A stretch of DNA of 64,000 nucleotides from Nitrospirota bacterium (lineage in GTDB: Bacteria; Nitrospirota; JACRHJ01). The DNA is taken from contig JAJYHX010000001.1 in assembly GCA_021784575.1 (NCBI GenBank), positions 23,280 to 87,279 on the forward strand. Direction: 5' to 3'. The notes below the pieces were generated by a model. It worked only from the letters and a program-made list of their open reading frames with translations, did no database searches and was not told where the DNA came from. The translations under genes and the position numbers were made by a program. How positions within the stretch are numbered: the first letter of the stretch is position 1; the number at the start of each line of letters is the position of its first letter. Below are positions 9,639 through 36,511 of the stretch, one piece after another.

Positions 9639-9659
9639 ATACGCTCCTCTTTTAAGACC

Positions 9660-9692
9660 GTTACTTTATCTTTCAGGTGAAAGAAAAGTAAC
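9660..9692. repeat. Palindromic hairpin repeat (same family), between the extra his-operon gene and hisF.
   Basis: GTTACTTTATCTTTC-aggt-GAAAGAAAAGTAAC, with a one-nucleotide bulge. Confidence 0.75.
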
Positions 9693-9712
9693 CAAAAGAA
9701 AGCCAGACAAGT

Positions 9713-10582
9713 TTAAAGCCTCACCGGCACGCCGCGTTCTTTCAGGTATTCTTTCGCCTCTTTAATGGTATATTCCTTGTAATGGAATATGGAGGCCGCG
9801 AGAGCCGCGTCGGCGCGTCCTTCTGTCAGGCCCTCGTAGATATGATCAAGGTTGCCCACGCCGCCGGATGCGATTACGGGTATGCTCACCGCGTCGGATA
9901 CCGCGCGAGTGAGCTCTATGTCGTAGCCCGTCTTCTGGCCGTCCTGGTCCATCGATGTAAGGAGTATCTCGCCCGCGCCGAGCTCTTCCATCTTTACCGC
10001 CCATGCGACGGCGTCGATATACTTCGGCTGCCTCCCGCCGTGCGTGAAGACCTCCCAGTGCAGACCGTTTTTGTCAACGCCCTGGAAAAACAGGCTGCGG
10101 AATTCGTCGTCTTGTACCCAGGGAAGCTTTTCGCTTACCTCCGTAATCTGTCTTGCGCGCCCGGCGTCGGGCACGGGGACTGTCCTCTTCGCGTCGATTG
10201 CGACGACTATGCACTGGCTTCCAAACCGCTCCGCCGCGGCCTTTATGAAGCGCGGATCATATACCGCGGAGGTGTTTATCGATACCTTATCGCACCCGGC
10301 CTTCAGGAGCGCCCTTATGTCGTCGATGCTTTTTATCCCGCCGCCGACGGTAAGCGGCATAAAGACCTGTTCCGACGTCCTTTTCACGACATCGATGATT
10401 ATACCGCGCTTCTCGTGCGAGGCGGTTATGTCGAGAAAGGTAAGTTCATCCGCGCCTTGAGCGTCGTACGCCTTGGCTATCTCGACGGGGTCGCCGGCGT
10501 CCCGCAGGTTGACGAAGCTCACGCCTTTTACAACGCGCCCGTCTTTTACGTCCAGGCATGGGATTATTCTTCTTGCAAGCAT
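9713..10582 (-). CDS. hisF: Imidazole glycerol phosphate synthase cyclase subunit.
   Basis: '[15 protein letters not shown]', 'LTVGGGI', 'VIASGGVG'. The protein is 289 aa and carries an extra ~30-aa segment near '[31 protein letters not shown]'. Confidence 0.9.
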
Positions 10583-10605
10583 AAAACTGTCCCGCTTTTC
10601 TTTGC

Positions 10606-10637
10606 GTTACTTTCTTTTCGCGTGAAAAGAAAGTAAC
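10606..10637. repeat. Palindromic hairpin repeat (same family), between hisF and hisA.
   Basis: GTTACTTTCTTTTC-gcgt-GAAAAGAAAGTAAC, a perfect 14-bp stem. Confidence 0.8.
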
Positions 10638-10640
10638 GGT

Positions 10641-11366
10641 TTAGCTTCTCGTTATTTCTATAGCTTTTTTCAGATCCAGCGCGCCGGAGTATACCGCCTT
10701 GCCGGTTATTACGCCTTCCACTCCGAGTTTTTCTATCTCCATCAGGGCCTTTATGTCGCTTAAATCCTTGACGCCGCCGGAGGCGATAATAGGGGTTTTG
10801 ACCAGATCCGCGAGGTGTTTCGTTGCGGCGACGTTATGGCCTTTCATCATCCCGTCGCGGCTTATGTCCGTGTAGATAATCGCCCGCACGCACGCGTCCT
10901 CCATGCGTCTTGCCAGCTCGTCCGCCGTAACGTCCGATACCTCTCCCCAGCCGCGCACGGCAACCCTGCCGTCTCTGGCGTCTATGCCGGCAATTATCCT
11001 GCCCGGATATTTCTTGCAGGCCAGCATAAGAAGACCCGGCACCTCCAGCGCGGCCGTGCCCAATACCACGCGGCTCACACCAAGCCCAAGGAGGAAGTCT
11101 ATGGTGTCCATGTTTCGGATTCCGCCGCCGACCTCAACAGGAATCTTTACGGCGGATAAAATATCCTTTATGGACGAGAGGTTCTTTTGTCTGCCCGCAA
11201 ACGCGCCTTCAAGGTCAACAACGTGTATAAGCTCCGCCCCCAGGGACTCGAAATGCGCCGCCGTCCCCATAGGGTCCTCCGAATATACGGTCGCGTCCTC
11301 CATCCGTCCCTGGAGGAGCCTGACGCATCTGCCCTCCTTCAAATCTATCGCGGGTATTACTATCAT
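10641..11366 (-). CDS. hisA: ProFAR isomerase.
   Basis: 'MIVIPAIDLKEGRCVRL', 'EVGGGIR', 'IASGGV'. Confidence 0.9.
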   Translation of the reverse strand: MIVIPAIDLKEGRCVRLLQGRMEDATVYSEDPMGTAAHFESLGAELIHVVDLEGAFAGRQKNLSSIKDILSAVKIPVEVGGGIRNMDTIDFLLGLGVSRVVLGTAALEVPGLLMLACKKYPGRIIAGIDARDGRVAVRGWGEVSDVTADELARRMEDACVRAIIYTDISRDGMMKGHNVAATKHLADLVKTPIIASGGVKDLSDIKALMEIEKLGVEGVITGKAVYSGALDLKKAIEITRS

Positions 11367-11989
11367 TCTATTTCTCCGAATGCCTTCAGTATTTTTAGTC
11401 CCTGCTCCTGGCTCTTTTCAGGATGGAACTGCGCGGCGAAAATATTGTCCTTCCAGACGCTGGAGACAAATTCCAGGCCGTACTCCGTCGTCGTAGCCGC
11501 AATAGAGCCGTCCTGCGGGACGACATAATACGAATGGACGAAGTAAAAAAATCCGCCGTCTTCCACGCCCTTCAGGTGCGGCGGGCGGTTCCTGATTTTT
11601 ATCCTGTTCCAGCCCATATGCGGTATTTTATATATCTGTTCATTGTTTCCGGGAAGTTCCGCGGGGAAGCGCACAACCCGGCCCTTTAATATCCCCAGGC
11701 CCTTGTGTACGCCGAATTCCTCGCCCTCCTCGAAGAGAAGCTGAAGCCCCAGGCATATGCCCATGAACGGTCTGCCGGAGGCGATTACCTTCCTTACCGT
11801 ATCGGCGAGGCCGAGCCTGTCCAGGTTGTTCATGCAGTCCGCGAATGCGCCGACGCCGGGCAGGACTACCTTGTCCGCGTCCAGTATCTTTTGTCTGTCG
11901 GACGTTACCCCCGCCTTGTGCCCGACCTTCTCGAAACCTTTCTGCACACTGCGGAGGTTGCCCATCCCGTAATCGATTATTGCAATCAT
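11363..11989 (-). CDS. hisH: Imidazole glycerol phosphate synthase glutamine amidotransferase subunit.
   Basis: 'MIAIIDYGMGNLRSV', 'LPGVGAF', 'GICLGLQLL', '..HSY'. Start set at the internal ATG at 11989. Confidence 0.9.
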   Translation of the reverse strand: MIAIIDYGMGNLRSVQKGFEKVGHKAGVTSDRQKILDADKVVLPGVGAFADCMNNLDRLGLADTVRKVIASGRPFMGICLGLQLLFEEGEEFGVHKGLGILKGRVVRFPAELPGNNEQIYKIPHMGWNRIKIRNRPPHLKGVEDGGFFYFVHSYYVVPQDGSIAATTTEYGLEFVSSVWKDNIFAAQFHPEKSQEQGLKILKAFGEIE

Positions 11990-11999
11990 TTTGACCCGC

Positions 12000-12611
12000 C
12001 TACAGCTTCCCCTTTGTGGACGGTATGCCCCTGGTCCTTGCGTCAAGGACTGTTGCGTTATCCATCGCCCTGCCGAAGGATTTAAAAATCGCCTCTATGA
12101 TATGGTGCAGATTGATGCCGTACGGGACGTTTATGTGAATCGTTGTCCCGGCATGGTCGGAGAGCGCCTTGAAGAAATCGTATACAAGCTCCACGTCGAA
12201 ATCCCCTACCTTGCCCTTCGGGAGCTTGACGTTATACACCAATCCCGGCCTTCCGGAAATATCCACCACCATCTCCGCGAGCGCCTCGTCCATCGGCACC
12301 TTTGCAAAGCCATACCGCGCCATGCCCTTCATGTCCCCCAGCGCCTGCCGGAACGCGCCTCCCAGGACAATCCCCACGTCCTCGACCGTGTGGTGATAGT
12401 CCACATGCGTGTCGCCCCTGGCCTGCAACGTAAGGTCGAAATGCCCGTGCCGCGCCATGAGCGAGAGCATGTGGTCGAGGAACGGGACGGAGGAATCGAT
12501 TTTATATTTCCCCGCACCGTCCAGATTAAGCGAGAGCTTTATATCGGTCTCGGTCGTCTTTCTCTCAACCTTTGCCCTGCGGGCCATAAAAACCTCCTTA
12601 AGGCGGGACAA
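12000..12611 (-). CDS. hisB: Imidazoleglycerol-phosphate dehydratase.
   Basis: 'RKTTETDI', 'FLDHML', '[16 protein letters not shown]', 'HHIIEA'. Confidence 0.9.
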
Positions 12612-12619
12612 AATATCAG

Positions 12620-13687
12620 CTATTTTTCCAATAAAAGCTCTTTTAAGTTAGCCAAAAAATCTTCGTTTTCCGGCGGCGTGCCGATAGTCACCCTCAGGCA
12701 GTCCTTCATCGGCCCCGGCGAGTCCATGTTTCGCACCAGTATTCCGCGCGCCTTCAGTTCCTTGTGGATTTTGCCCGCGCCTCTTACGCGGAAAAGGATG
12801 AAGTTCGTCTTCGACGGCCATGCGGCAATGCCGTCCATGCCGCTTAATATTTCGTACATCCGCTCGCGCTCGGCAGTTATTTTTGATACCTGTTCGCTTA
12901 CCGCCGCACGGTTTTTCAGCAGATACTCCGCCGCAGCCTGGGAGAGAGCGTTTATGTTGTACGGCAGGCGGACCTTGTTTACCTCGCGGACGATGTCCCT
13001 GCCAGCCGCCATAACACCGAGGCGAAGGCCGGCCATGCCTATCTTTGAGAGAGTCCTTAGCACTGCGAGGTTCGGGAGTTCGTTTATTTTGTCAATGAAG
13101 CTCTCTCCGGAGAAGCTGAAATACGCCTCGTCCACAACGACGATGGAAAAGCAACCCTCGATAAGGCGCCGTATCCTGTCGGGGTCGAAGAGGTTCCCCG
13201 TCGGGTTATTGGGGTAGCTGATGAATATGACCTTCGGGCGGCGCACCGAGAAGAGCCTCAGCCAGCCGTCGAAATTAATCTGGAAATCAGCCGTGAGGGG
13301 AAGCTCCATGACCTCCTGCCCCATCGAGCGGGCGACGATGCCATACATGGAGAATGTCGGGGTCGGGTATGAAATTATTCCCGGCGAGCCTCCGAATGCC
13401 TGGATTATCATCCCTATAAGCTCGTCGGAGCCGTTCCCCAGGACGAGGTTCTCCGCGCCGACGCCGAGGTATTCCGAAAGAACGCCTTTCAGGCGCATCG
13501 CCTCCGGGTCGGGATAGCGGTTCAGGGAAACTTCCGCCAGTGCGCCTGCGAGCCCTGCCCTCAGCCCTTCGGGGAGCGGATACGGGTTCTCCATCGCGTC
13601 GAGCTTTATGCGCACGCCGTCGTAGTCCTCCGGCTCGTACGCCGAAAGCGATACCACTTCTCTTCTTACGAGGGGCTTGATGTCCAA
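12620..13687 (-). CDS. hisC: Histidinol-phosphate aminotransferase.
   Basis: '[13 protein letters not shown]', 'YPNNPTGN', '[15 protein letters not shown]'. The track ORF carries a 66-aa extension that overlaps hisG. The likely start is the TTG at 13687, directly after the hisG stop. Confidence 0.85.
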
Positions 13688-13689
13688 GT

Positions 13690-14562
13690 TTACGGTATCA
13701 CCTTGTTCAGAGGATATTCGACTATCCCGGAAGCGCCGGCGCGCTTGAGTTCCGGGATAAGGTCGCGCACCTTCTTCTCGTCGATTATCACTTCGAGGCT
13801 CACCCAGTCCGGGTCGGCGTGGCGGGAGATGGTCGGCGAGTGCATCGCGGGCAGGACGGACGTTACCTTGTCCAGCTTCGCGCACGGGACATTCATCTTG
13901 AGGCCCACTTTTTCCTCCGCTGCGATTGCCCCCTGAAGGAGTATATTCAAGTTCTCAAGCTTCTTTCTCTTTCCCGGGTCCTTCCACGCCTCCCTGTTCG
14001 CAATCAGGCGCGTGGTGGAAGTCAGCATCACTTCGATTATGCGGAGCTTGTTCGCCCGAAGAGAGTTCCCGGTCTCGGTCAAGTCCACTATCGCGTCGGC
14101 GAGCCCGGCGCCGGGCTTTACCTCCGTCGCGCCCCAGGAAAACTCCACCTCCGCGTTTACGCCATGCTGCCTAAGGAACTTCTTCGTGTATCCCAGAAGC
14201 TCAGTCGCAATGCGCTTCCCGTTCAAGTCCTTTACGGCCTTTATTTTAGAGTCTTCCGGCACGGCTATTACCCAGCGCACGGGACGCAGGCCCTCCTTGG
14301 CGTAATTCAGCTCGGCAACTTCCACGACCTTCGCGCCCTGCTCCATTATCCAGTCGTATCCGGTAAGGCCGGCGTCGAGCACGCCGTCCTCGACATAACG
14401 CGGCACCTCCTGCGCGCGCACCATCATGCACTCTATCTCCGGGTCGTCTATGGAGGGGTAATACGAGCGGCTTCCGACGGTGATGTTGTAGCCGGCCTTT
14501 CGGAAGATTTTAAGGGTTGAGTCCTGCAAGCTGCCTTTGGGGATTCCAAGACGCAAAACCAT
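13690..14562 (-). CDS. hisG: ATP phosphoribosyltransferase (long form with C-terminal regulatory domain).
   Basis: '[10 protein letters not shown]', '[24 protein letters not shown]', plus a C-terminal regulatory domain. Start at ATG 14562 behind an AAAGGAG RBS. Confidence 0.9.
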
Positions 14563-14607
14563 TTTGAAGAAAACTCCTTTCGTGTCCAATGCGTGGAATA
14601 ACGGCTT

Positions 14608-15903
14608 CTATTCGCGGCCCTGCATCCGTTTTTCCACCATTCTCGCGTGGGCGTCGAGACCTTCCATTTTTGCTATCCGGATGACCGCAGGTGCAAGCTC
14701 TTCAAGCGCTTCCTTCGTATACATCAGGAAGCTCGACTTCTTCACGAAGTCGTCCGTGGAAAGCGGCGAGAAAAATCTCGCCGTCCCGCCCGTGGGAAGG
14801 ACGTGGTTCGGCCCGGCGCAGTAATCCCCGACGGCCTCCGGCGTGAAGTGTCCCATGAATATCGCGCCCGCGTTTTTTATCTTCGGCAGAAGCTCCATCG
14901 GCCTGTCCACGGCAAGCTCCAGGTGCTCGGGCGCGATGCGGTTCGCTATGTCCGCCGCCTCGCCCAAGTCCCGCGCCAGTATAATCGCGCCGTAACTTTT
15001 AAGAGACTTTCCCGCAACCGCCCGGCGCGGGAGAACCGAGATCTGCGCCTTAAGCTCAGTCTCGACGTTCTTTGCCAGCTCCGGCGAGTCCGTAACAAGT
15101 ATTGCCGAAGCCATCTCGTCGTGTTCCGCCTGGGAGAGCAGGTCTGCCGCAATGAAGGCAGGGCTTGCGGTGTTGTCCGCAACCACCAGTATCTCGGAAG
15201 GCCCGGCCACCATGTCTATGTCAACAGCGCCGAAGACGAGCCTCTTTGCCGTGGCCACGTATATGTTGCCGGGGCCGACTATTTTATCGACCCTGGGGAT
15301 TGTCTTCGTGCCGTATGCCATTGCCGCGACGGCCTGCGCCCCGCCTATCTTGTATATCTCATCCACGCCCGCCATGTCCGCCGCCACGAGGACTCCGGGG
15401 CTTAGCTTCCCGACCGGAGCGGGCACGCACATCACGACCCTCGGCACTCCGGCTGCCTTCGCCGGGATTGCGTTCATAAGCACGGACGACGGGTATGACG
15501 CCTTGCCGCCGGGCACGTATATCCCGACGCATTCAAGCGGCATTACCCTCTGGCCCAGCATCGCGCCCGATTCTTCCTGCAGGAACCACGACTGGGTTTT
15601 CTGACGTTCGTGGAAGTCGGAAATCCGCCGTGCCGCAAGACGGAGCGCGTCCACGTCCTCCTCCGGCGTTTCCCTGTATGCCCGCTCTATCTCCTTTTCC
15701 GTCACCCGGAATCTTTTCGGAATTAATTTTACGCCGTCGAATTTTTCTGTGTAGGAAACGAGCGCGGCGTCTCCCGTCTTCCGGACATCTTCGATTATTC
15801 TACGGACGGTCTTCTCGACCGACGCGGGGACTTCGCCCGCCCGGCCTTCAATCTTCCTGAAGAATTTCTCGAACCCCGGCTGCCCGAACTTAAGAAAATT
15901 CAT
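14608..15903 (-). CDS. hisD: Histidinol dehydrogenase.
   Basis: 'GGAQAVAAMAYGT', 'VDKIVGPGNIYVATAK', 'AGPSEILV', 'LSQAEHD'. Confidence 0.9.
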   Translation of the reverse strand: MNFLKFGQPGFEKFFRKIEGRAGEVPASVEKTVRRIIEDVRKTGDAALVSYTEKFDGVKLIPKRFRVTEKEIERAYRETPEEDVDALRLAARRISDFHERQKTQSWFLQEESGAMLGQRVMPLECVGIYVPGGKASYPSSVLMNAIPAKAAGVPRVVMCVPAPVGKLSPGVLVAADMAGVDEIYKIGGAQAVAAMAYGTKTIPRVDKIVGPGNIYVATAKRLVFGAVDIDMVAGPSEILVVADNTASPAFIAADLLSQAEHDEMASAILVTDSPELAKNVETELKAQISVLPRRAVAGKSLKSYGAIILARDLGEAADIANRIAPEHLELAVDRPMELLPKIKNAGAIFMGHFTPEAVGDYCAGPNHVLPTGGTARFFSPLSTDDFVKKSSFLMYTKEALEELAPAVIRIAKMEGLDAHARMVEKRMQGRE

Positions 15904-15993
15904 GAAACCTCGAAGAGAAAAGTCCCTGGATTCCCGCTTTCGCGGGAATAACGGCTTTAAACCTTTACCCGTTTCAAATTAACAGGCTGTCTT

Positions 15994-17244: not shown

Positions 17245-17461
17245 GAAAACCTCGACAATCTAAAAATCGCATCAGAGCGAGCGGATATATGTATGAGCGA
17301 GCTGGAAATTCTTGGCGAAGCGAAGCGGCCATGGCAGAAACTGTCCGACGAACAAAGTGAGGAGTTTTTCTGCCATAACGGTGCAAGCCGTAGAACTTCC
17401 CGAGCGAATCCTCATGAAGCGAGCCTGGTGTGATTTTAGTTCACCAGATCCCTTGTCCCGG

Positions 17462-20354: not shown

Positions 20355-20412
20355 AACACCTCTGTTTACCTCAACCCCTCGCCCTCCGGGAGAGGGGACG
20401 GGGGTGAGGGCT

Positions 20413-20452
20413 AAAAAAACAATAGGAAACCAGCGTATGCCGCGGGTTTCCT
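20413..20452 (-). terminator. Putative rho-independent terminator after rpmE.
   Basis: On the minus strand, an 8-bp stem (AGGAAACC / GGTTTCCT, 20424-20452) is followed by ATTGTTTTTTTAG. Confidence 0.4.
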
Positions 20453-20478
20453 ATCGTGTATTGCAAGACTGAGAGTAG

Positions 20479-20682
20479 CTAAGCCTTTTTCGCGTATTTT
20501 TTGTTGAACCGCTCGACCCGTCCCTCGGTGTCCATGAGCTTCTGCTTGCCCGTGAAGAACGGGTGGCAGGCGGAGCAGACCTCGACGGAGACGCTCTTCC
20601 TGGTGGAGCGGGTTTCCATCACGTTCCCGCATGCGCATTTTATCTTGACCGGCTCGTATTTCGGATGTATGCCTTCCTTCAT
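20479..20682 (-). CDS. rpmE: 50S ribosomal protein L31.
   Basis: 'MKEGIHPKY...CACG...[13 protein letters not shown]'. Confidence 0.9.
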
Positions 20683-22600: not shown

Positions 22601-22650
22601 TTTGTACTCTATCGAAAATTTAACACAAATATCTTTTCAATTCAATATGT

Positions 22651-25603: not shown

Positions 25604-25616
25604 TTTGTTACCTCTT

Positions 25617-28040
<2,424 letters not shown>

Positions 28041-28081
28041 TTATATCTCCTTAAAATCAAAATCCAAACCGTCTTTTTCTT

Positions 28082-28636
28082 TCACGAGCGGTCTATCTTC
28101 CGTTCCGGAAGGAGAACTTCCTTCAGTATCTCCTCCGCCTGCTCCCGGACGCCGCCTTTTCCGAGATTTTCCTTGCCGGCCATCTCCTCCACGTCAATCC
28201 TGACAATCTCCGTTCTTGCAAGCTTCTCCGGCAAATAACCGCCAAAGCCGCCTTCCGGCTGGTATTTCTCCATCAGAAGGCCAAAAGCGGCCATCCGTTC
28301 CGTCTCGTCCCACACTATCCGCGCCCGCCCTTTTGCGACGACGCTCCGGTATAGGTACCCGGCCTGGCACGGCTGATCCTTTGCGCGCTGAAAAGCCACC
28401 GGCAGGTCCGCTTCGAAGCAGACCCGACCATCTCTTTTTATGTCGTCTATCTTTTCGCCATCCCTTGCGGAGTGGAAGTATATCCGGCCCGCGCTGTAAG
28501 CGAAATTCAACGGTTTTATCATCGGCCTGCCGTCTTTGGCTATCGTGCCCAGGCGGCCAACCCTGCAACCTGCCGGAAGAGACTCGGCTGCCTCTTTTGA
28601 TATTTCTTTTTCCTTGCGTCTCATCTCTATCCGCAC
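28082..28636 (-). CDS. Pyridoxamine-5'-phosphate-oxidase-like FMN-binding family protein.
   Basis: Split-barrel-like pattern 'GRLGTIAKDGRPMIKPLNFAY..GRIYFHSA..GEKIDDIKRDGRVCFEAD' and length. Confidence 0.5.
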   Translation of the reverse strand: MRIEMRRKEKEISKEAAESLPAGCRVGRLGTIAKDGRPMIKPLNFAYSAGRIYFHSARDGEKIDDIKRDGRVCFEADLPVAFQRAKDQPCQAGYLYRSVVAKGRARIVWDETERMAAFGLLMEKYQPEGGFGGYLPEKLARTEIVRIDVEEMAGKENLGKGGVREQAEEILKEVLLPERKIDRS

Positions 28637-28642
28637 TGAAGG

Positions 28643-29758
28643 CTATACCCGCATCGGCATCACGACGCACTTATACGACTCGCCGCCGGCCTGGCTTATT
28701 ATGCAGGGAGATAGGTTGTCCTTTAAGAGCAGGCTTACCTTGTCCTGGTCCATAACGGAGAGCGCGTCGAGCAGGTATTTCGCGTTGAAGCCGACTTCCA
28801 GCTCCTGTCCGCCGTATTCCACCGGAAGCTCCTCCCTTGCCTCGCCTATCTCCGGGTTCTGGGAGGTAAGGGCCGCCTTTTCCTTCGACAGGACAAACTT
28901 CACGGCGTTCGTGCGCTCGCGGGAGAGAAGCGAGACGCGCCTCAGGGCCGCCGTAAGGAGCGTCTTCTCGACGGATACGGATTTGTCGTTCGACGTCGGT
29001 ATGACCTGCTCGTAGTTGGGGTAGTTGCCCTCTATCAGGCGCGTAACGAGGTAGAGCGAGCCCAGGCGGAATACGACATGGTTCTTGGAGAGCGCCATCA
29101 TAAGCTCCGTCTCTCCCTCGTCGAGGAGTTTTTTTAGTTCCGAGGCGGATTTTTTGGGTATTATGGCCGTCCCGGGGGCGGCCTTGGCGGAGATCCTGCG
29201 CTTCAGGACGGCCAGGCGATGGCCGTCCGTGCCCACCATTTCTATCTGTGAGCCGCCATCCTGCGAGGTTATGGCCATATAGATGCCGTTTAGGACATAT
29301 CTCGTGTCGTTGTCTCCGGCGGCGAAGATGGTCTTCCGTATAAGTTCGTGCATCAGGAGCGGGTCTATCGGAACAAACTCGGCCCCTTCCATCTCCGGAA
29401 GCGTCGGGAATTCCTCCCTGGCCAGACCTGTAAACCTGAATGTCGCCTTCCCGCTCTTTATCGTGGCCCAGTTGTTCTCCGCGCTCTCCACGGAGACCTC
29501 TTCCTCCGGCAGTTCCCGGACAATCTCGAAGAGCTTCCTGGCCGAAAGCGTCACCCCGCCAGGCTCCGCCACCTCCGCCTGATAGACGCCCTTAAGGCCT
29601 ATTTCGAGGTCCGTCGCGGTAATGGCGATGCCCCCGCCGCCATCGACGGTCTCTATCAGGGCATTGCTCAAAACCGGCATTGTATTGCGCCTGTCCGCCA
29701 CGGACTGCACCCTCGACAGGCCCTTGAGGAACTCTTCCTTTTTGATCAGAAATTTCAT
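28643..29758 (-). CDS. dnaN: DNA polymerase III beta sliding clamp.
   Basis: 'MKFLIKKEEFLKGLSRVQ', three-domain length, and the C-terminal 'CVVMPMRV'. Start at ATG 29758 behind an AAAGGGG RBS. Confidence 0.9.
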   Translation of the reverse strand: MKFLIKKEEFLKGLSRVQSVADRRNTMPVLSNALIETVDGGGGIAITATDLEIGLKGVYQAEVAEPGGVTLSARKLFEIVRELPEEEVSVESAENNWATIKSGKATFRFTGLAREEFPTLPEMEGAEFVPIDPLLMHELIRKTIFAAGDNDTRYVLNGIYMAITSQDGGSQIEMVGTDGHRLAVLKRRISAKAAPGTAIIPKKSASELKKLLDEGETELMMALSKNHVVFRLGSLYLVTRLIEGNYPNYEQVIPTSNDKSVSVEKTLLTAALRRVSLLSRERTNAVKFVLSKEKAALTSQNPEIGEAREELPVEYGGQELEVGFNAKYLLDALSVMDQDKVSLLLKDNLSPCIISQAGGESYKCVVMPMRV

Positions 29759-29784
29759 TGGAGCCCCTTTCTCAGATAATTTAT

Positions 29785-29882
29785 TAACCCTTTGCTTTTC
29801 TTTCACGAGAAAGAAAAGTAAAACAAAAGAAAGCAAAACCTTATGTCCGGACTTTCCTTTGTTACTTTCTTTTCTCCCGAAA
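29785..29882. repeat. Composite palindromic repeat element in the dnaN-dnaA spacer, consisting of two hairpins.
   Basis: Hairpin 1 is CTTTTCTTTC-acga-GAAAGAAAAG (29785-29808). A spacer then contains CAAAAGAAAGC. Hairpin 2 is GTTACTTTCTTTTC-tccc-GAAAAGAAAGTAAC (29851-29882), a perfect 14-bp stem. Confidence 0.8.
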
Positions 29883-29896
29883 AGAAAGTAACGACT

Positions 29897-31288
29897 TTAT
29901 CCCTTAACCGCTTTTGCCAGAGCCTCGACCTCCGCGTCGAATTTTATGTCGTTTGCGCGCCGCTCGTCCACCTGGCGGCAAGCATGGAGAACCGTGGTGT
30001 GGTCCTTGCCGCCGAACGCCTTCCCGACCTCCGGGAACGAGCCGCCTGCGACAGTCCTGCAAAGATACATCGCCACCTGCCGGGGCTGGACGAGGTTCCT
30101 GGTGCGCTTCTTGGACTTTATCTCGGATATTTTTATCTGGAAGTGGTCCGCCACGAGCTTTATTATCTCGTCGAGGCCGATTACCCGCTCCTTTTCGGCG
30201 ATGATGTCCCTTAGCACCACCCTCGCAAGCTCCAGGGTTATCTGGCGGCCCGTAAGGGATGCATATGCTCCAAGGCGAATAAGCGAACCTTCCAGTTCCC
30301 TGATATTAGACTTTATGTTGTTTGCCAGGAACATAGACACGTCATCCGGGACGGTTATCCCATCCTGCTCCGCCTTCTTGGCTACGATTGCCGCCTTTGT
30401 CTCCATGTCCGGGGGCTGAATATCCGCTATAAGACCCCACTCAAAGCGCGACCGTAGGCGTTCCTCCATGTCCGGCATCTCCTTCGGGAAGCGGTCGGAG
30501 GACAGGACAATCTGTCTGCCATATTCGTGTAACGTATTGAAAGTATGAAAAAATTCCTCCTGCGTGCGCTCCTTTCCGGCAATGAACTGTATGTCGTCTA
30601 TAACCAGAAGGTCGGTATTTCTGTATTTATTGCGAAACTCCGTCATGCGGTTATAGTGAATGGCGGTGATAAGCTCGTTCGTGAACTCCTCGGAGGTAAG
30701 AAATGTTATCCTGGTCTTTGGGGAGTGTTCCTTTATATACGCGCAGATGGCCGAAAGGAGGTGGGTCTTGCCAAGACCCACGCCCCCGTATACAAACAGG
30801 GGGTTATAGGCCCTGGCGGGGTTTTCCGCAACGGCCTTTGCCGCGGCATGGGCGAACTCGTTGGACTTGCCGACGACAAAATTACTGAATGTATATTTCG
30901 GGTTGAAACCGTGTGGTTTCCTGGCCTTCTGCTGCTCGGCCCCAGGCGCGTCACGGAGGAGAGCCGGCGGGGTTTCGTCCTTTCCGTCTCCGGCCTCCGC
31001 CCCTTCTTTGCCGTAATTCCCGCCATGGCCAAAACCCTTTGATATGTGAAACGAAAGGGCTATCTCGTCCCTTTCGAGGACCTCCTTTAAGACTCGCGTC
31101 AGAATATCGAAATAATGTTCAAGCAGCCACTCCTTGAAGAACTTGTTCGGGACGTTTAAGGCGACCCCTGTCGCGTCAATGGACTTCAGTCTTACCGGGC
31201 GAATCCAGGTATCGAAGTTCTGACGGCTTACCTCCCTCGAGATAAGCTCCTGCGCCTCAGACCAGATATCCTTTGCAACTTCCTGCAT
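29897..31288 (-). CDS. dnaA: Chromosomal replication initiator DnaA.
   Basis: 'GGVGLGKTHLL' Walker A, 'LLVIDDIQF', and the C-terminal DNA-binding 'VAMYLCR..'. Confidence 0.95.
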   Translation of the reverse strand: MQEVAKDIWSEAQELISREVSRQNFDTWIRPVRLKSIDATGVALNVPNKFFKEWLLEHYFDILTRVLKEVLERDEIALSFHISKGFGHGGNYGKEGAEAGDGKDETPPALLRDAPGAEQQKARKPHGFNPKYTFSNFVVGKSNEFAHAAAKAVAENPARAYNPLFVYGGVGLGKTHLLSAICAYIKEHSPKTRITFLTSEEFTNELITAIHYNRMTEFRNKYRNTDLLVIDDIQFIAGKERTQEEFFHTFNTLHEYGRQIVLSSDRFPKEMPDMEERLRSRFEWGLIADIQPPDMETKAAIVAKKAEQDGITVPDDVSMFLANNIKSNIRELEGSLIRLGAYASLTGRQITLELARVVLRDIIAEKERVIGLDEIIKLVADHFQIKISEIKSKKRTRNLVQPRQVAMYLCRTVAGGSFPEVGKAFGGKDHTTVLHACRQVDERRANDIKFDAEVEALAKAVKG

Positions 31289-32009
31289 AATCTTTCCTGA
31301 TAAACCAAGAAAACGTTGAGAGTCAAAAGATTTTTGGATTAAAACCGCAGGTTTAAGTTACTCACACCGTTTTCCACACCTGTTGATAAACCTGATATTA
31401 TTTTATTTTTCAATAACTTTAACCCCATAAACCTGCGTTTGGGGCGTTATTTTTCACAGGATTTAAGTCCTCGTTTTTTCATCGTTTTATAAGTTTAAAA
31501 AATGGCATCCAGCTGCTGCTTTTAATGCCTTGCTTCGTCTGCTTCGGCAAGAATGGCAGAATACGCCATATTAACAGAAGCGGGGTGTCTTAATCAAGAT
31601 ATTTCTATTATGGCCTGGAAAGTTTAAGAACCTGTTAATTCAAGAATTTTCAAAACCTTAAACGACAGTTTGAGGCCGCGCGGGAATACATAAACAACAT
31701 GTTTCCACACAGGAATTTCACGTGGTCTCCCGTTGTTTTTTTAAGGGCTTACTCTCTGTTTTCACATCTTCACAACTAATGACTATTAGTGTTACTATTT
31801 CTCTAAACTTTAAATAGGGGGATAAGGAACGAATTTTTAGCCTGAATGGTAGTGTCCTAATTTGAATTCCTTAGATAAAAAGGCCGTATTTTGACGGCAT
31901 TTTTCATTTTATGCCTTGACAAATGTAATTATTATAATTAATATAGTTTTTTAGAAGAAAATAAAAAACCCACGGATAAAGTGGGGAGCGGAGCTGCAAG
32001 TTTTTAGCC
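31289..32009. other. Putative oriC region / dnaA promoter region.
   Basis: AT-rich non-coding stretch next to dnaA. Degenerate DnaA-box-like 9-mers include TTTTCCACA (31370-31378), TGTTGATAA (31381-31389) and GTTTCCACA (31701-31709). An AT-rich DUE-like run lies at 31921-31970. Confidence 0.5.
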
Positions 32010-32132
32010 TACCTGCCGCACTTGGGGCCGATAGGCTTGGGGTTGGAGCGTGTATGGGCCTTGACCTTTACGGCGTTCTTTGCCCCGGTCTTCTTCACCC
32101 TTTCGGGACGACAGATGACCTTGGTTGCCATG
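32010..32132 (-). CDS. Candidate small basic protein (40 aa) of unknown function.
   Basis: Not in the ORF track. The ATG is preceded by GAAAGGAGAAAGAC, a strong SD 6 nt upstream. The product is 'MATKVICRPERVKKTGAKNAVKVKAHTRSNPKPIGPKCGR', and no family was recognised. Confidence 0.3.
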
Positions 32133-32185
32133 TCTTTCTCCTTTCTCGACGGCTATGGGAACCGCCGTGCCACTATACAGCGGTT

Positions 32186-32231
32186 GCCGTTAGAAAAGAA
32201 AAAGGACTCCGCCCCCCGCTATATCGGTGGG
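32186..32231 (-). terminator. Putative terminator downstream of the defence operon (possibly bidirectional).
   Basis: A GCCCCCC-gctatatc-GGTGGGC hairpin (32209-32231) is flanked by a T-run on both strands: TTTATTTTG on the plus strand and TTTTTCTTTTC on the minus strand. Confidence 0.35.
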
Positions 32232-32233
32232 CT

Positions 32234-32548
32234 TTATTTTGCCTTATATTCCTGAATAATTGCGGCCTTAACAGCATCCTGGGCCGACTTTATAGGGGGA
32301 GTATGAAGGACGGCGAAAAACCGCCTTTTTGAACTTCCCTCAATAGGCGAAGACCAAGCATAGCATTTCTTGGCAAGCGGATTGCCCTTGATATTAAACA
32401 CGTGGACAATCCCTTGCCATACAACCTTATCTTGAAAGGTTTCTGAGACGTAAACCGTATCTGCCAGCTTCGCAGTGCATCCGTGCATCCGCTCAACGGC
32501 TTCTTTTAACTGGTCTATGTTTTCGGTCATTTTGGGAATATAGGCCAA
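32234..32548 (-). CDS. Hypothetical protein (104 aa), last gene of the RHH / DUF262-DUF1524 operon.
   Basis: The ORF overlaps the end of the upstream nuclease gene. No recognisable motif, and low-GC codon usage like its neighbours. Confidence 0.4.
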   Translation of the reverse strand: MAYIPKMTENIDQLKEAVERMHGCTAKLADTVYVSETFQDKVVWQGIVHVFNIKGNPLAKKCYAWSSPIEGSSKRRFFAVLHTPPIKSAQDAVKAAIIQEYKAK

Positions 32549-34236
32549 GTTTCAATCGCCAATTTTGCCAAGTTTTTTTGCCTGTCTGTTATTTGTTCAA
32601 CGTCCCACTTATCGTAACTTGCCACCTCGGACGTGAGTAGAAAGGCTGACTCTTTTAAGACCTTTTTCTTTTCCGTAAAGGGACTATTGCCAATCATTGA
32701 GTTCTTTTTCGCCTGGAGAATAACCATATTTCCGATTCTGTTGTAATATGCCCCTGCTGTTTCAGGGTCAATTCCGGGCCATTCGTTCTTAGGGTTTTCC
32801 GGCAAAATATGCTCAAGGTTTATTACGTTTTCTTCATCGGACGGCACAAACTCAGGCTCAGGGTCGTTTTTCTTTTTTAATTCCAAGGCGCGGAGATAAT
32901 AACGTGCCCGGAACACCTGGGAAATGCGAGCATCGGCAAAGGCTGCCTCAAACATTGCATCACTCGGTACGACCTCAGACATAGCATTAGCAAGTTGTTT
33001 TGCGGTCTTTACCGTACCGCTCGCTACTTCTTGTGCCCGAAGAGCATAGTTGCGGTCAAGCAATCCACCACGCCCTCCGACAAAAAGAAATCTGACAGAC
33101 CAAAATAGAAGCATCCGAAAAGCCAGGCGTCCTTCCTCTACGGAAAAATGGCGCGATACCGCAAACAACAACGGGATAATCTGTAATACCCGAATATCCC
33201 GGTTTAAAGTGGAAATGTTTTTCCGTGTAGTTGTGCCGTATTCGTTCCATTTCTTATGGTCAGAGTTGAAAAGCGCAGCATAATCATTCGCTCCCTCCGC
33301 AAGCTCTTCCAAAAATTCGAGAGAACGGTTTTGATTGTTTACAAGCTGCTTGATTTTATCGAAAATCTCGCGTTCCTTTGTAGGCCCATATTTTGTAATT
33401 AAAAGGTGATGTAAATATGAAACCGTAGTGTCTTCTCTTTCTAAGGATTCCAGTATACCCATCATTTGGGCCCATTTTTGCTGAGCTTCTCTTATGCGGT
33501 CACCGGAATAACCGAGAAGATGATTTTTAAGCAAATCCGCCTGGGATGCTTTAAGCCCTCTATCGTTAAGAGTTTCAAACATTAAAAAAGCGTTTAAATG
33601 GTCGGGCACTCGCAATAAAATTACCTGTGCGCCAGAACGAATAAAGCGAATCCATTCAAGAAGTCGTGCGGTCTTGAGGGGTTCTTTTTGGCCAAAAGGA
33701 TCAAGAAGCTCCTGAATATATTTTGCCGCAATGTCAGATGCGGTTGTTATTCTCTTATGGGAATCCTTGGTTGGTTTTACTTTTCTGTCGGGACTGTCGG
33801 GAGAGGAGAGAATAAATTTTCGGAAAAAATCGTTATCGTCAACATTCAAGCGAAGCTGCGGGACAATATCTGTCGTTTCAATATCGGTTTTCAGCAGAAA
33901 CTCCTGTTCAATAGGAGTGGCCCTTAACTTATCTCCACTATTGAAAAAATAATCTCGGATTGCCGCTATAAGTATAGCGGTTGTAGCAAGGCGTTGTTGG
34001 CCGTCGGAAACTTCCGGTATATCCCCTTCGCCTCTCGTCAATACGATAGTTCCTAAAAAATAACTTCCCTTGTTGGCCGCTATAGCGTTAGCAAAATCGG
34101 TGAATAAATCCCTGACATGCCCTTCTTCCCACGAATATTCTCTTTGGTTAAGCGGCACGGCAAGACGGTTTTGTGCCAACACATCACCAATTCCCCTGTG
34201 TTCAAACCCGATTTCTTCAGCTGGCTGTTTTGCCAT
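32527..34236 (-). CDS. DUF262 (ParB-like, DGQQR) plus DUF1524 (His-Me/HNH-like) two-domain nuclease, i.e. GmrSD-family type IV restriction-like enzyme.
   Basis: N-terminal 'VSDGQQRLATTAILIAAI' (DUF262 DGQQR motif). C-terminal 'NLEHILPENPKNEWPG...YYNRIGNMVILQAKKNSMIGNSPF' (DUF1524-type His-Me finger). The gene is about 45% GC against a much higher GC in the surrounding genome. Confidence 0.8.
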   Translation of the reverse strand: MAKQPAEEIGFEHRGIGDVLAQNRLAVPLNQREYSWEEGHVRDLFTDFANAIAANKGSYFLGTIVLTRGEGDIPEVSDGQQRLATTAILIAAIRDYFFNSGDKLRATPIEQEFLLKTDIETTDIVPQLRLNVDDNDFFRKFILSSPDSPDRKVKPTKDSHKRITTASDIAAKYIQELLDPFGQKEPLKTARLLEWIRFIRSGAQVILLRVPDHLNAFLMFETLNDRGLKASQADLLKNHLLGYSGDRIREAQQKWAQMMGILESLEREDTTVSYLHHLLITKYGPTKEREIFDKIKQLVNNQNRSLEFLEELAEGANDYAALFNSDHKKWNEYGTTTRKNISTLNRDIRVLQIIPLLFAVSRHFSVEEGRLAFRMLLFWSVRFLFVGGRGGLLDRNYALRAQEVASGTVKTAKQLANAMSEVVPSDAMFEAAFADARISQVFRARYYLRALELKKKNDPEPEFVPSDEENVINLEHILPENPKNEWPGIDPETAGAYYNRIGNMVILQAKKNSMIGNSPFTEKKKVLKESAFLLTSEVASYDKWDVEQITDRQKNLAKLAIETWPIFPK

Positions 34237-34237
34237 T

Positions 34238-34423
34238 TTAGTCTCTCTTCGTTTGCAGGAAGGCCACTGGAATAGATGCCTCTTCCAACTCTTTTACGGC
34301 TGCCCGTCGTAACCGCTCTCTCGCCCACATAGACAAGGGTAGCCCTGTTATCTTCGCGGCTTGCTGGAAAGCTTCTTTTTCCTCTGGTTCAAGCATTATT
34401 AAAAAGGATTTCGTTTTTGCCAT
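34238..34423 (-). CDS. Ribbon-helix-helix (CopG/antitoxin-like) small DNA-binding protein, first gene of the operon.
   Basis: 'MAKTKSFLIMLEPEEKEAFQQAAKITGLPLSMWARERLRRAA' has the typical RHH antitoxin/regulator pattern. Its stop abuts the nuclease start. Confidence 0.5.
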   Translation of the reverse strand: MAKTKSFLIMLEPEEKEAFQQAAKITGLPLSMWARERLRRAAVKELEEASIPVAFLQTKRD

Positions 34424-34429
34424 TAGATA

Positions 34430-35470
34430 TATCTCTCCTTCCTGTTTTTGAAAATATATATCAAGTCTAATTAAATGTCAACCCCTATTTTAAAAAATAC
34501 ATCTATTAGATATATAAAAATCATTTTCTTATTGACATATATATCGACTCAATATATACTTTAAACAATCGAAAGGAGAAATCACGATGAACAGGTTATC
34601 TACCGAGAGGCAGGCACAGATTATAGGCGGTTTAGTGGAGGGTAATTCTATCCGCTCCATTGAACGCATGACGGGCACTCACCGCGATACAATAATGCGG
34701 CTCACGCTTAACGTCGGGGAAAAGTGCTCACGGATTATGGATGAACAAATGCGTAACTTGAATTGTGATAGGATTCAGGTTGACGAGATATGGACATACG
34801 TCCAGAAGAAGCAGAGGCGAGTTATTCCCGGTCTCGACGACCCAGGCCGTGTAGGAGACCAGTGGACGTTTGTTGCGCTCGACCCCGACACAAAGCTTGT
34901 GCCGACATATCTAATCGGCAAGAGGGATTTGGAGACGGCAACGGCTTTCATGGTTGACCTTTCAGAGCGATTAGCTAACAGGGTGCAAATATCTTCTGAT
35001 GCGCTCAGGGCATATATTGAAGCAACGGAAAGGGCCTTTGGTGCGGATGTTGATTACGGCCAAATAGTTAAAGTCTATGAAGCTGAACCAGCGGGAGCCG
35101 GAAGGTATAGCCCGCCCGAAGTTATTAAGACCGAGAAGTCAACCATCATCGGCAGACCCGACAAGGGCCATATATCTACAAGCCTTGTTGAACGGCAGAA
35201 TTTGACGATGAGAATGAGCATGAGAAGATTCACTCGTCTAACTAATGCTTTCAGCAAGAAGATAGAGAATTTGCGCGCGGCGGTCGCACTCCACTTTGCC
35301 TATTATAATTTCGTCAGGGTGCATCGGGCGTTGAGGATTACCCCTGCTATGGCGGCTGGCGTTACAAATCAAATCTGGTGCGTGGAGGACTTATTAGCAA
35401 ATTAGGACACTACCGCCTGAATACTATTCTTGACTTTTCCCGTTTTTTGGAAGATAATACTTTTTTTGCA
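34430..35470 (+). mobile_element. IS1-family-like insertion sequence (ends not defined) in a strongly AT-rich patch.
   Basis: The transposase CDS at 34587-35405 is flanked by AT-rich sequence of roughly 25-30% GC. A sigma70-like promoter (TTGACA-N17-TATACT) lies at about 34541-34569. Inverted repeats could not be assigned confidently. Confidence 0.55.
34587..35405 (+). CDS. IS1-family transposase (single ORF with an N-terminal HTH and a DDE domain).
   Basis: 'IQVDEIWTYV', 'WTFVALDPDTKLVPTYLIGKRD', and a C-terminal 'LVERQNLTMRMSMRRFTRLTNAFSKKIENL' resembling the IS1 InsB '[25 protein letters not shown]'. Confidence 0.7.
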   Translation: MNRLSTERQAQIIGGLVEGNSIRSIERMTGTHRDTIMRLTLNVGEKCSRIMDEQMRNLNCDRIQVDEIWTYVQKKQRRVIPGLDDPGRVGDQWTFVALDPDTKLVPTYLIGKRDLETATAFMVDLSERLANRVQISSDALRAYIEATERAFGADVDYGQIVKVYEAEPAGAGRYSPPEVIKTEKSTIIGRPDKGHISTSLVERQNLTMRMSMRRFTRLTNAFSKKIENLRAAVALHFAYYNFVRVHRALRITPAMAAGVTNQIWCVEDLLAN

Positions 35471-35498
35471 AATCTAACAAACAATAACGGAGAATACC

Positions 35499-35633
35499 AT
35501 GAGCATAACATATCAGCCAAGCAAGCTCAAAATGAAACACACCCACGGGTTCAGGAGCAGAATAGCCACCGCCGCCGGGAGACTCGTCCTGAAGCGCAGG
35601 CGCGCCAAGGGCCGCAAAAAGCTGACACCGTAG
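35499..35633 (+). CDS. rpmH: 50S ribosomal protein L34.
   Basis: Not in the ORF track because it is only 44 aa. '[44 protein letters not shown]'. Confidence 0.9.
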
Positions 35634-35653
35634 GGATCCCCCTTTCTTCCTGG

Positions 35654-35685
35654 TTACTTTTCTTTTCTCACGGAAAAAAAGTAAC
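35654..35685. repeat. Degenerate copy of the palindromic hairpin repeat, between rpmH and rnpA.
   Basis: GTTACTTTTCTTTTC-tcac-GAAAAAAAGTAAC. Confidence 0.6.
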
Positions 35686-35694
35686 GGTTTAATT

Positions 35695-36198
35695 ATGCCT
35701 TTTTCTTTAGACAAATCCTGCCGGATAAGAAGAAGCTCCGATTACAAGCGGGTGTATGATGAAGGCGTCAGGGTTTCCGGTAAATTTGTCATAGCGGTAA
35801 TCAGGCTGTCGGGAGAGCCTTTAAGGGTTGGTATAACCGTCAGCCGCAAGGTTGGAGGAGCATGTGTCCGGAATCTTGTCAAGCGCAGGATACGCGAGGC
35901 GGTGCGCTTGGAGTTTGACCCGGCCCTGTCCGGCTGGGACGTGGTCCTTGTCGCAAGAGGGCGGGTTGGACAAAAGGGGCAGGAGAAGCCGGGTAGTTTA
36001 AACGGGCCGGGAGGGAGAAAAAGGCCCGGCGGCGCTGCCGGGCCGGACGCGGCGATAAAATCGAGAGGCATAAAGAAGACAGCGTCCAATTTTCCTTCAT
36101 TTTCCGGGATAGTAGAGGATATAAGGCGGGTGACCGGGAGACTCTCCGGGATACAAGGTAAGCGGCCCGCGTGCGATTTCGGGATAAAAGGCAAGTGA
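35695..36198 (+). CDS. rnpA: RNase P protein component with an unusually long low-complexity C-terminus.
   Basis: '[15 protein letters not shown]', '[26 protein letters not shown]', 'WDVVLVAR'. The stop overlaps the yidD ATG as TGATG. Confidence 0.75.
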
Positions 36199-36410
36199 TG
36201 ATGAAGTGGATATTTATCGGTTTAATAAAGCTCTATCAGGCGGTAGTATCGCCGATAATCCCTCCGCGTTGCCGTTTCTATCCGTCGTGCTCCGAATACT
36301 CTCTTGCCGCGCTTAAAAAACACGGTCTTTTCAAAGGCTTGTTCCTGACAGTAAAAAGACTGCTTAAATGCCATCCGCTCCATCCGGGCGGATATGACCC
36401 AGTGCCGTAA
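36198..36410 (+). CDS. yidD: Membrane protein insertion efficiency factor YidD.
   Basis: '[62 protein letters not shown]'. Confidence 0.85.
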
Positions 36411-36417
36411 GACCGCC

Positions 36418-36511
36418 GCTTTCTTTTCTCGTGAAAAGAAAGCAACACAAAGAAAAGCGAAACTGCCGGATTTTTTTTGGTTACTTTTCTTTCTCCCGAA
36501 AGAAAAGCGAC
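36418..36511. repeat. Composite palindromic repeat element in the yidD-yidC spacer, consisting of two hairpins.
   Basis: Hairpin 1 is GCTTTCTTTTC-tcgt-GAAAAGAAAGC (a perfect 11-bp stem). A spacer then contains CAAAGAAAAGC. Hairpin 2 is GTTACTTTTCTTTC-tccc-GAAAGAAAAGCGAC. The architecture matches the dnaN-dnaA copy. Confidence 0.75.

Follow-up and report, generated by a model that had tools for sequence, protein, structure and literature searches.

What is the short palindromic sequence that recurs between the genes of an uncultured Nitrospirota bacterium, and at which level, DNA or RNA, does it act? The window, by which we mean the whole stretch of 64,000 nucleotides analysed here (contig JAJYHX010000001.1, positions 23,280 to 87,279 of the forward strand), carries this sequence in spacers of the his, dnaA-dnaN and rnpA-yidC operons. 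The initial annotation had noticed palindromic hairpins at five intergenic sites and had hesitated between a REP- or MITE-like dispersed repeat (repetitive extragenic palindrome; miniature inverted-repeat transposable element) and a shared protein or RNA-structure site. All five sites were recovered. With at most two mismatches the half-site GAAAAGAAAGTAAC matched ten times in the window for 0.41 expected, a number reached by none of 100 shuffled sequences. An nhmmer profile made exclusively from copies outside the window detected exactly eight units in it (E 1.7e-14 to 1.4e-5), seven hairpins across the five spacers and one within mnmE, and no further match in the window at E < 1. The motif was enriched over chance and was not limited to the five sites. 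We propose that these repeats probably derive from a short dispersed element of non-coding DNA, REP- or MITE-like in its behaviour, which would be an A/T-rich counterpart of the E. coli element called BoxC, PIT (potential intrastrand triplex) or TM_ECO, with a selected hairpin and a triplex potential.

The copies between genes were spread across 31 kb in both orientations, and the sites do not form a CRISPR array, in which direct repeats alternate at regular distances with unique spacers, as the initial annotation had already stated. The units are A/T-rich homopyrimidine/homopurine tracts, whereas the window has a G+C content of 56%. Perfect stems do exist, although two had been announced at 14 bp each: the exhaustive hairpin scan gave 15 bp at 10605-10638 and 14 bp at 29861-29892, with further perfect stems of 11 bp (36418-36443) and 10 bp (29795-29818 and 36484-36507). 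The copies at 9660-9692 (one-base bulge) and 35654-35685 (degenerate) were imperfect. The copy between dnaN and dnaA is composite as described, but it spans approximately 29790-29892 instead of 29785-29882. The coordinates of all units are collected in Table 1.

Anatomy of the unit and the mirror rule

Read in one orientation, the unit of about 50-70 bp is composed of a flank, a 10 nt pyrimidine arm (Y1), a loop of 4 nt (3-5), a purine arm (R1), a second flank and a third purine block, R2, which is the mirror image of R1; on the complementary strand a pyrimidine block mirrors Y1. The three blocks are 10 nt long, the second linker measures 4-6 nt, and three flanking base pairs extend the stem to 13 bp. 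Subtype I has the arms CTTTCTTTTC/GAAAAGAAAG followed by R2 = CAAAGAAAAGC, and subtype II the arms CTTTTCTTTC/GAAAGAAAAG followed by R2 = CAAAAGAAAGC. The latter sequence had been read as a mere motif of the composite spacer. It was indeed present at 9693 and 29824, but its place was taken by CAAAGAAAAGC at 36448, as well as at 10594 on the opposite strand; this difference, which tracks the hairpin subtype, is the informative one, and the supposed spacer is the third block, mirror of the purine arm.

The strength of the mirror rule was visible in a scan across phyla, in which one genome per species was searched with the bare hairpin CTTTYYTTTC-N4-GAAARRAAAG. At least 120 blocks were returned, and most matches carried a third block, yet the pattern demanded none. 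The matches listed comprised 141 hairpins of subtype I or II, distributed over 39 genomes in five phylum-level groups. Of these hairpins, 100 had a third block within 17 nt that was an exact mirror, and one had an exact direct repeat. The arms being asymmetric, mirror and direct repeat are distinguishable, and it is the existence of two mirror-image subtypes in this A/T-rich family that makes such a test possible. Among the same matches, both subtypes followed the rule in Nitrospirota as well as in Clostridia. It also held for other variants: T8/A8, seen in Victivallaceae, was accompanied by CAAAAAAAAGC, and CTTTTCTTTT/AAAAGAAAAG by CAAAAGAAAAC. One could imagine that R2 is simply the arm of the other subtype, available for an alternative pairing; this reading fails because genomes with subtype I alone still keep the rule. 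The mirror relation fits purine-motif triads (A.A-T, G.G-C) on one strand and pyrimidine-motif triads (T.A-T, C+.G-C) on its complement. The units have the layout of intrastrand triplexes (ITxF classes II and IV), for which three consecutive pyrimidine or purine blocks on one strand, stems between 6 and 15 nt and loops between 1 and 6 nt are required (PMC4666352), and they are repeated, over-represented and mostly intergenic, as expected for an intrastrand triplex motif.

Apart from subtypes I and II, a type III hairpin, GTTACCTTTTT-N3-AAAAAGGTAAC followed by GCCAAAAACTTTT, was observed in related Nitrospirota and was absent from the window. Its third block kept the five A/T positions and had a C where the mirror rule expects a G.

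The hairpin is maintained by compensatory changes. Exactly three flank pairs beside the pyrimidine/purine tract were paired, in 97, 90 and 90% of the units versus 41, 74 and 34% with shuffled partners, and pairing at flank positions 4 and 5 was at background. At least nine distinct covarying flank triplets were counted, including TTA/TAA, GTT/AAC, CTT/AAG, CTA/TAG and GTA/TAC. The loop sequences varied freely while the arms remained perfect. DNA and RNA folds of single units were far below those of shuffled sequences (-15 to -21 kcal/mol, z -4 to -6), the third block being unpaired in this folding, which considers Watson-Crick pairs only. In the window, the DNA fold of the unit 10583..10640 reached -15.4 kcal/mol (z -6.0), again with an unpaired third block, and that of the unit 9653..9712 reached -8.8 kcal/mol (z -4.4); the RNA fold of the degenerate copy 35654-35685 was no better than shuffles (z = -0.9).

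We suggest that wherever DNA becomes single-stranded or negatively supercoiled, as during replication, transcription or recombination, the unit would fold as a hairpin or cruciform, and that it could alternatively adopt a triplex (H-DNA) of 9-10 triads. Foldability would then be the property kept either by selection or by the element's own propagation.

Spread, pairing and orientation of the units

The family had been supposed to be specific to this genome. The three-block unit was also present in relatives and far beyond them: many of the blocks of the motif scan came from Nitrospirota metagenome-assembled genomes (MAGs), while others belonged to Bacillota (Clostridia and further groups), Lentisphaeria, Hydrogenedentota and a single genome of Verrucomicrobia. 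The Verrucomicrobia copies and some of those in Clostridia had a longer, G+C-rich stem extension, with the mirror block farther out. Loci retrieved through YidC homologues, and not by the motif, contained 47 hairpins in 164 kb, mostly in spacers, at densities from one hairpin per 17 kb (L123) to 16 in 21.6 kb (L126). Comparison of orthologous spacers revealed that copies may be present, absent or broken (Table 1), and the differing subtype orders in the yidD-yidC spacer point to inversion or re-insertion. The description as a REP- or MITE-like dispersed repeat of intergenic spacers was partly right, the copies being far above chance, present beyond the five sites and variable at orthologous spacers.

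In a Clostridium MAG, units directly followed tRNA 3' ends (..CCA) twice (L008, 3849-3900 and 4217-4270), and in a Nitrospirota MAG a composite filled the spacer between two tRNA genes (L011, 1100-1200). A single unit with GTTA/TAAC flanks, of Nitrospirota style, and a near-mirror third block CAAAAGAAAC was seen in a contig of Stenotrophomonas riyadhensis, a high-G+C gammaproteobacterial assembly (L085, 3214-3260); it could result from horizontal transfer or from contamination. A scan of viral contigs gave 12 hairpins with a mirror block in only two, which argues that the unit is not phage-borne, and a search of metagenomes with RnpA gave a single weak locus of no relevance. In the window, the segment 47130-47160, in a spacer between two minus-strand genes, reads CCCCCTTTTTAAC-CAAAGGAAAAGC-CCGGAA; it has the look of a third block with its inner tail, no hairpin being discernible, and is perhaps a further decayed copy. 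The probable remnant at 28066-28084, which lacks the right arm, is located ahead of the gyrB start and past the stop codon of the gene upstream.

The units were found single or as composites, in which two hairpins have a head-to-head orientation and their third blocks face each other ([hairpin a + R2a] - spacer - [Y2b + hairpin b]) across about 30-40 nt, a spacer that is often of the form CCGGRC..TTTAAA..GYCCGG. The two members always differed in subtype, in 13 of the 13 composites listed and in further ones, with the combinations I/II, I/III, II/III and IV/I, so that no long perfect palindrome results. This heterotypic pairing may reflect selection against long perfect palindromes. The idea that the third blocks of paired units are selected to pair together was discarded, as heterotypic pairs make that stem imperfect. 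Single units contain half the spacer and thus resemble half composites.

The element would spread in the manner of a REP or a MITE, through a putative trans-acting activity. A more specific version of this proposal can be considered, in which the hairpin is recognised on single-stranded DNA by a domesticated HUH (Y1) transposase, the REP-associated tyrosine transposase (RAYT), the head-to-head pair is the replicative unit as in REPINs (REP doublets forming hairpins), and the third block serves protein or DNA recognition and is no triplex former. The observed palindromes of approximately 33 bp in spacers, as singles or inverted pairs 30-40 nt apart, speak for it, as do presence, absence and inversion at orthologous sites, singles resembling half composites with half the spacer, and copies that are numerous in certain genomes and few in close relatives. 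The family does consist of imperfect intergenic palindromes of 20-40 bp, in singlets and inverted doublets. The TnpA transposases of the IS200/IS605 insertion sequences find their cleavage sites through DNA-DNA contacts beside a hairpin. On the other hand, no Y1 transposase was detected among the window proteins tested or recurrently near copies (only about 0.4 Mb searched), and clustering of all open reading frames (ORFs) against each other around the 120 loci listed yielded no recurrent transposase near the copies. The conserved GT[AG]G head is missing: the foot of the stem is (G)TTA, CTT, GTT or CTA, covarying with the 3' side, and not GTAG. A mirror of 9-10 nt kept across phyla is moreover unexpected for a protein site, since proteins read mirrored sequences differently. 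We consider this version unlikely, although it is partly compatible with the DNA element proposed here. MITEs have terminal inverted repeats and a target-site duplication and derive from an insertion sequence; here the outer flanks are inverted (TA[AG]AACC-G ... C-GGTT[TC]TA) and adjoin TAA, but the empty sites resolve no duplication.

The location of the copies relative to genes raises the question of a function in RNA. As had been claimed, the genes on either side were co-directional in all five spacers, so that every intergenic copy of the window lies in a transcribed region. The units begin 3-8 nt past TAA or TAG stop codons, ahead of Shine-Dalgarno sequences, and their outer flank (..GTAAC-(AA)GGTTTTAA) often provides AAGG shortly 5' of the next start codon. 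Insertion at these places, right past the stop and just before the ribosome-binding site, would leave operons intact. Such an arrangement would also be expected if the hairpins acted in the messenger RNA, guarding the ends of cistrons or marking processing sites, possibly with an RNA triple helix (U.A-U, C+.G-C) in the strand order pyrimidine third block - pyrimidine arm - purine arm. The RNA folds were stable (-20 to -41 kcal/mol, z -3.7 to -4.7), and type III-containing composites were oriented relative to the genes, 13 versus 1-2 in three related genomes. Pyrimidine-motif intrastrand triplexes can form in RNA but the purine-motif orientation cannot (PMC4666352), and the orientation of the units was not fixed. 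The bias was confined to type III-containing composites; true single units of Nitrospirota were found both ways (5 versus 2), I/II composites occurred in both orders, and in other phyla the singles were mostly located after stop codons in the opposite orientation (22 versus 7, from crude gene calls among the matches listed). An apparent bias of approximately 15:1 among singles, the pyrimidine third block lying upstream of start codons, had seemed to hint at an RNA triplex; most of these proved to be composites with a type III partner. Some copies were situated between convergent genes, and depletion from divergent spacers was weak by the same crude gene calls. Mismatches had no preference for G-U over A-C on the sense strand (8 versus 11), as selection on RNA would have produced. 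No unit was among the 14 terminator-like sites of the interval 28500-37500, a number not above that of shuffled sequences, and none was flagged in the promoter/terminator scan. Rfam gave no match in the whole window at gathering thresholds and only chance-level miRNA and snoRNA matches in E-value mode, and the window contained no tRNA. The absence of a fixed orientation, of a G-U bias and of Rfam or terminator matches favours an element acting at the DNA level over an RNA motif, which appears distinctly improbable.

These observations also bear on the attenuator, terminator or operator suggested by the initial annotation, an idea they do not sustain. A palindrome recurring ahead of several genes might have been the operator of a DNA-binding regulator, or a shared attenuator, by which the flanking operons are co-regulated. 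The neighbours are functionally unrelated (his, dnaN, rnpA, yidC, gyrB, recF, parAB, tRNAs), dozens of copies occur per 100 kb, some of them between convergent genes or in mnmE, the compensatory stem changes keep pairing and not sequence, and a mirror block would be meaningless to a dimeric protein. Co-regulation of this kind is hardly credible, and we infer that the unit does not serve specifically to control the his, dnaA-dnaN or rnpA-yidC operons.

Copies in mnmE and around the replication origin

The genes flanking the units were identified with Pfam as hisIE, the PF04008 gene, hisF, hisA, dnaN, dnaA and rnpA, and YidC was confirmed by homology. The his-operon gene between hisF and hisIE (9156-9638, minus strand) belongs to the PF04008 "adenosine specific kinase" family (E 3.6e-76). 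Genes to the left of approximately 31.3 kb are on the minus strand and those to the right of approximately 34.5 kb on the plus strand, indicating that the window spans the dnaA/rpmH origin region. Four of the six window sites are within 15 kb of dnaA. Among the matches listed, at least nine of about 45 Clostridia blocks fell in the dnaA-dnaN-recF-gyrBA / yidC-mnmE-parAB region for about 0.5 expected, and the TM_ECO copies of E. coli K-12 cluster in the origin-proximal half of the chromosome (PMC4666352).

Between dnaA and rpmH, a 3.6-kb segment (31800-35415) was absent from the syntenic relative L012, where 45 nt are found; it seems to have been inserted into the putative oriC region. Its genes are that of a GmrSD-type restriction endonuclease (32527-34236, minus strand) and a 272-amino-acid ORF with a weak IS1-transposase match (34587-35405, plus strand). 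Two diverging, near-consensus sigma-70-like promoters are present between these two genes (34453-34560), TTGACA-17-TATATT on the minus strand and TTGACA-17-TATACT on the plus strand, with 11 of 12 matches each.

The unit inside mnmE is part of an in-frame split composite, the two hairpins of which flank the codons of the G4 (NKxD) motif and fall in variable loops. The composite was kept in the window and in L122, L123, L125 and L126, with a perfect subtype I unit in L122 and L123. One stem displayed compensatory double substitutions that change amino acids (CCC/GGG, CTT/AAG, CAC/GTG); in the stem 40813-40838, GCA/TGC of the window was replaced by GCG/CGC in L122 and L123 and by GCT/AGC in L125 and L126, which alters the protein. 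Both hairpins are missing from L127, whose MnmE is shorter by only some 6 amino acids in that stretch, a difference too small to establish a simple insertion into the gene.

It is conceivable, though we think it rather doubtful, that the hairpin-plus-mirror unit is a functional bistable module (cruciform or triplex) selected across phyla, and not merely a tolerated selfish DNA. This idea follows from the compensation of the hairpin even in the essential gene mnmE, at an amino-acid cost, from pairs that are always heterotypic, long palindromes being avoided, and from the clustering of units near origins; all three would agree with a part played near oriC in replication or in the handling of the chromosome, for instance where DNA is single-stranded or supercoiled. 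If true, the family would supply, for the first time in bacteria, comparative proof of selection on triplex compatibility itself.

Several points weigh against the dispersed DNA element with triplex potential that we favour. Triplex formation is deduced from sequence rules only. The three conserved flank pairs overlap the second loop that a triplex requires, so that the 13-bp hairpin and the mirror-register triplex would be mutually exclusive. Type III (GTTACCTTTTT..AAAAAGGTAAC plus CCAAAAAC) fits only a one-strand T.A-T/G.G-C scheme. For TM_ECO itself, triplex was undetected in duplex DNA in vitro and by dimethyl sulfate (DMS) footprinting in vivo (PMC4666352), and the BoxC pair that was inspected is devoid of the three flank pairs. 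No transposase beside the copies, no resolvable target-site duplication and no parent insertion sequence were found. The cross-phylum scan fixed the hairpin arms, and other arm sequences and copy numbers lie outside it; the gene calls at motif-seeded loci were crude longest-ORF calls. Lastly, the conservation and compensation in mnmE and the clustering with origin genes hint at a host function beyond a purely selfish model.

Table 1. Repeat units and related features in the window, and corresponding sites in other loci (L numbers).
Feature	Position	Strand	Description
Single unit, subtype II	9653..9712	+	Between hisF and PF04008 gene; nhmmer E 1.2e-12; outer flank TAAGACC 9653-9659; hairpin 9660-9692; third block CAAAAGAAAGC 9693-9703; inner tail CAGACAAGT 9704-9712
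Single unit, subtype I	10583..10640	-	Between hisA and hisF; nhmmer E 1.7e-14; 15-bp perfect hairpin 10605-10638; third block 10594-10604, GCTTTTCTTTG on + strand = CAAAGAAAAGC on - strand; inner tail 10583-10593
Probable half-unit remnant (low confidence)	28066..28084	+	Outer flank plus left arm and loop, no right arm: AAACCGTC TTTTTCTTTC ACGA; nhmmer E 1.5
dnaA-dnaN composite, first half, subtype II	29786..29834	+	Hairpin 29790-29823; third block CAAAAGAAAGC 29824-29834; E 5.1e-12
dnaA-dnaN composite, spacer	29835..29851	.	AAAACCTTATGTCCGGA; has the CCGGA(C) motif found in spacers of related composites
dnaA-dnaN composite, other half, subtype I	29852..29896	-	14-bp perfect hairpin 29861-29892; E 4.2e-14; imperfect third block 29852-29860, CTTTCCTTT on + strand; immediately past dnaA stop codon
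Degenerate single unit, rpmH-rnpA	35641..35694	-	Decayed third block CCTTTCTTCCTGG (+ strand); imperfect hairpin 35654-35685; E 3.2e-6
yidD-yidC composite, first half, subtype I	36411..36458	+	11-bp hairpin 36418-36443; third block CAAAGAAAAGC 36448-36458; E 4.6e-10
yidD-yidC composite, spacer	36459..36470	.	GAAACTGCCGGA
yidD-yidC composite, other half, subtype II	36471..36522	-	Decayed third block TTTTTTTTG (+ strand); hairpin 36480-36511; E 2.2e-11
Outer flank of the preceding unit	36512-36522		AAAGGATTTAA; carries Shine-Dalgarno-like AAGGA immediately 5' of yidC start codon
mnmE gene	39747-41147	+	
mnmE-internal unit, subtype I	40709..40751	+	In frame, encodes ..PFSFGEKKGSKEN..; hairpin CCCCTTTTCTTTT-GGGG-AAAAGAAAGGG; third block CAAAGAAAAC; nhmmer E 1.4e-5
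mnmE partner hairpin	40813..40838	.	GCAGCCTTTCT-TTCA-AGAAAGGCTGC; in relatives, type-III-like hairpin after AAAGTTTTTGG
mnmE composite in relatives	L122 12175-12300; L123 11928-12060; L125 12791-12930; L126 12802-12940		
Type III sites	L029 6769-6791; L030 3013-3035, 3446-3468; L036 425-447; L090 4717-4739; L092 6806-6828; L094 2729-2751; others		
dnaA-dnaN spacer			Window: composite; L125, L126: broken composite; L122, L123: empty, 17-19 nt; L012, L127: unrelated sequence
yidD-yidC spacer			Empty in L123 (TAA GTAAAAA ATG); composite in six genomes; subtype order (I,II) in window, L125, L126; (II,I) in L122, L127; (II,T) in L012
rpmH-rnpA spacer			Window: degenerate unit; L012: intact, subtype II; L122: intact, subtype I, same orientation; L125-L127: absent
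gyrB-recF spacer			Full composite in L125, L126, L127; in window the probable remnant 28066-28084 by gyrB
Clostridia origin-region blocks	L009, L018, L031, L064, L072, L096, L109, L113, L118		

Comparison with known palindromic elements

In the literature searched no earlier description of this A/T-rich family was found, and Holder et al. 2015 was the sole relevant paper found. The palindromic elements of Rickettsia are likewise small palindromic repeats found both between genes and in frame in a conserved protein gene (here mnmE); for the window family, terminal inverted repeats with a target duplication were not demonstrable. There is also a resemblance with REP sequences, BIMEs (bacterial interspersed mosaic elements) and REPINs, which are short imperfect palindromes in transcribed spacers, occur as singlets and as inverted doublets with a short spacer, reach up to hundreds of copies and are gained and lost among relatives. 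However, the window family has no GT[AG]G head, no RAYT was found in the approximately 0.4 Mb searched, its mirror third block falls outside the REP definition, and its core is shared across phyla whereas REP sequences are species-specific.

Known since the 1990s, the BoxC/PIT elements have no assigned function. BoxC, the PIT element and TM_ECO are one and the same intrastrand triplex motif of E. coli, analysed by Holder et al. 2015 (PMC4666352) on the basis of Hoyne and Maher 2000, who described the PIT element. The TM_ECO consensus is 5'-CCCTCNCCC N3-6 GGGNGAGGG N3 GGGNGAGGG, that is Y9-N3-6-R9-N3-R9, which places it in class II of the intrastrand triplexes as a purine motif, with a pyrimidine motif on the complement; it is reported in Proteobacteria, strictly intergenic and variable among strains, has no promoter or terminator activity, and at five K-12 sites forms inverted pairs always associating a type A and a type B copy. 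TM_ECO oligonucleotides form a triplex in vitro, as seen by circular dichroism and nuclear magnetic resonance (PMC4666352). The K-12 BoxC pair that we inspected is situated 12 nt past the hrpB stop codon; its arrangement is head-to-head, the third blocks facing inwards, just as in the composites of the window family.

The window family departs from BoxC in several respects. It is A/T-rich (CTTTCTTTTC), in contrast with the G/C-rich CCCTCNCCC, and does not conform to the BoxC consensus; it alone has three extra covarying stem pairs (judged from the one BoxC pair inspected), and it extends over at least five phylum-level groups and into a coding sequence. A triplex was demonstrated in vitro for TM_ECO, whereas for the window family it is predicted from sequence rules. 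BoxC arms such as GGGAGAGGG are self-mirror, unlike the asymmetric arms of the window family; these G-rich arms cannot tell a mirror from a direct repeat, and whether the triplex potential is selected or incidental is undecidable there. The family described here offers natural test material, namely units alone and in pairs, orthologous sites with and without a copy, and coding copies with compensatory changes; such dense low-complexity palindromes also matter practically for assembling and annotating uncultured genomes. The window family is an analogue of BoxC by structural criteria, best placed among the repeats of the intrastrand-triplex kind, and not a member of the BoxC sequence family. 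Both have three consecutive blocks of 9-10 nt with a first loop of 3-6 nt, purine triads and a pyrimidine-motif complement, neither has promoter or terminator features, and both are multi-copy and intergenic, often directly past a stop codon, variable between related strains, and present as singles or as head-to-head heterotypic pairs.

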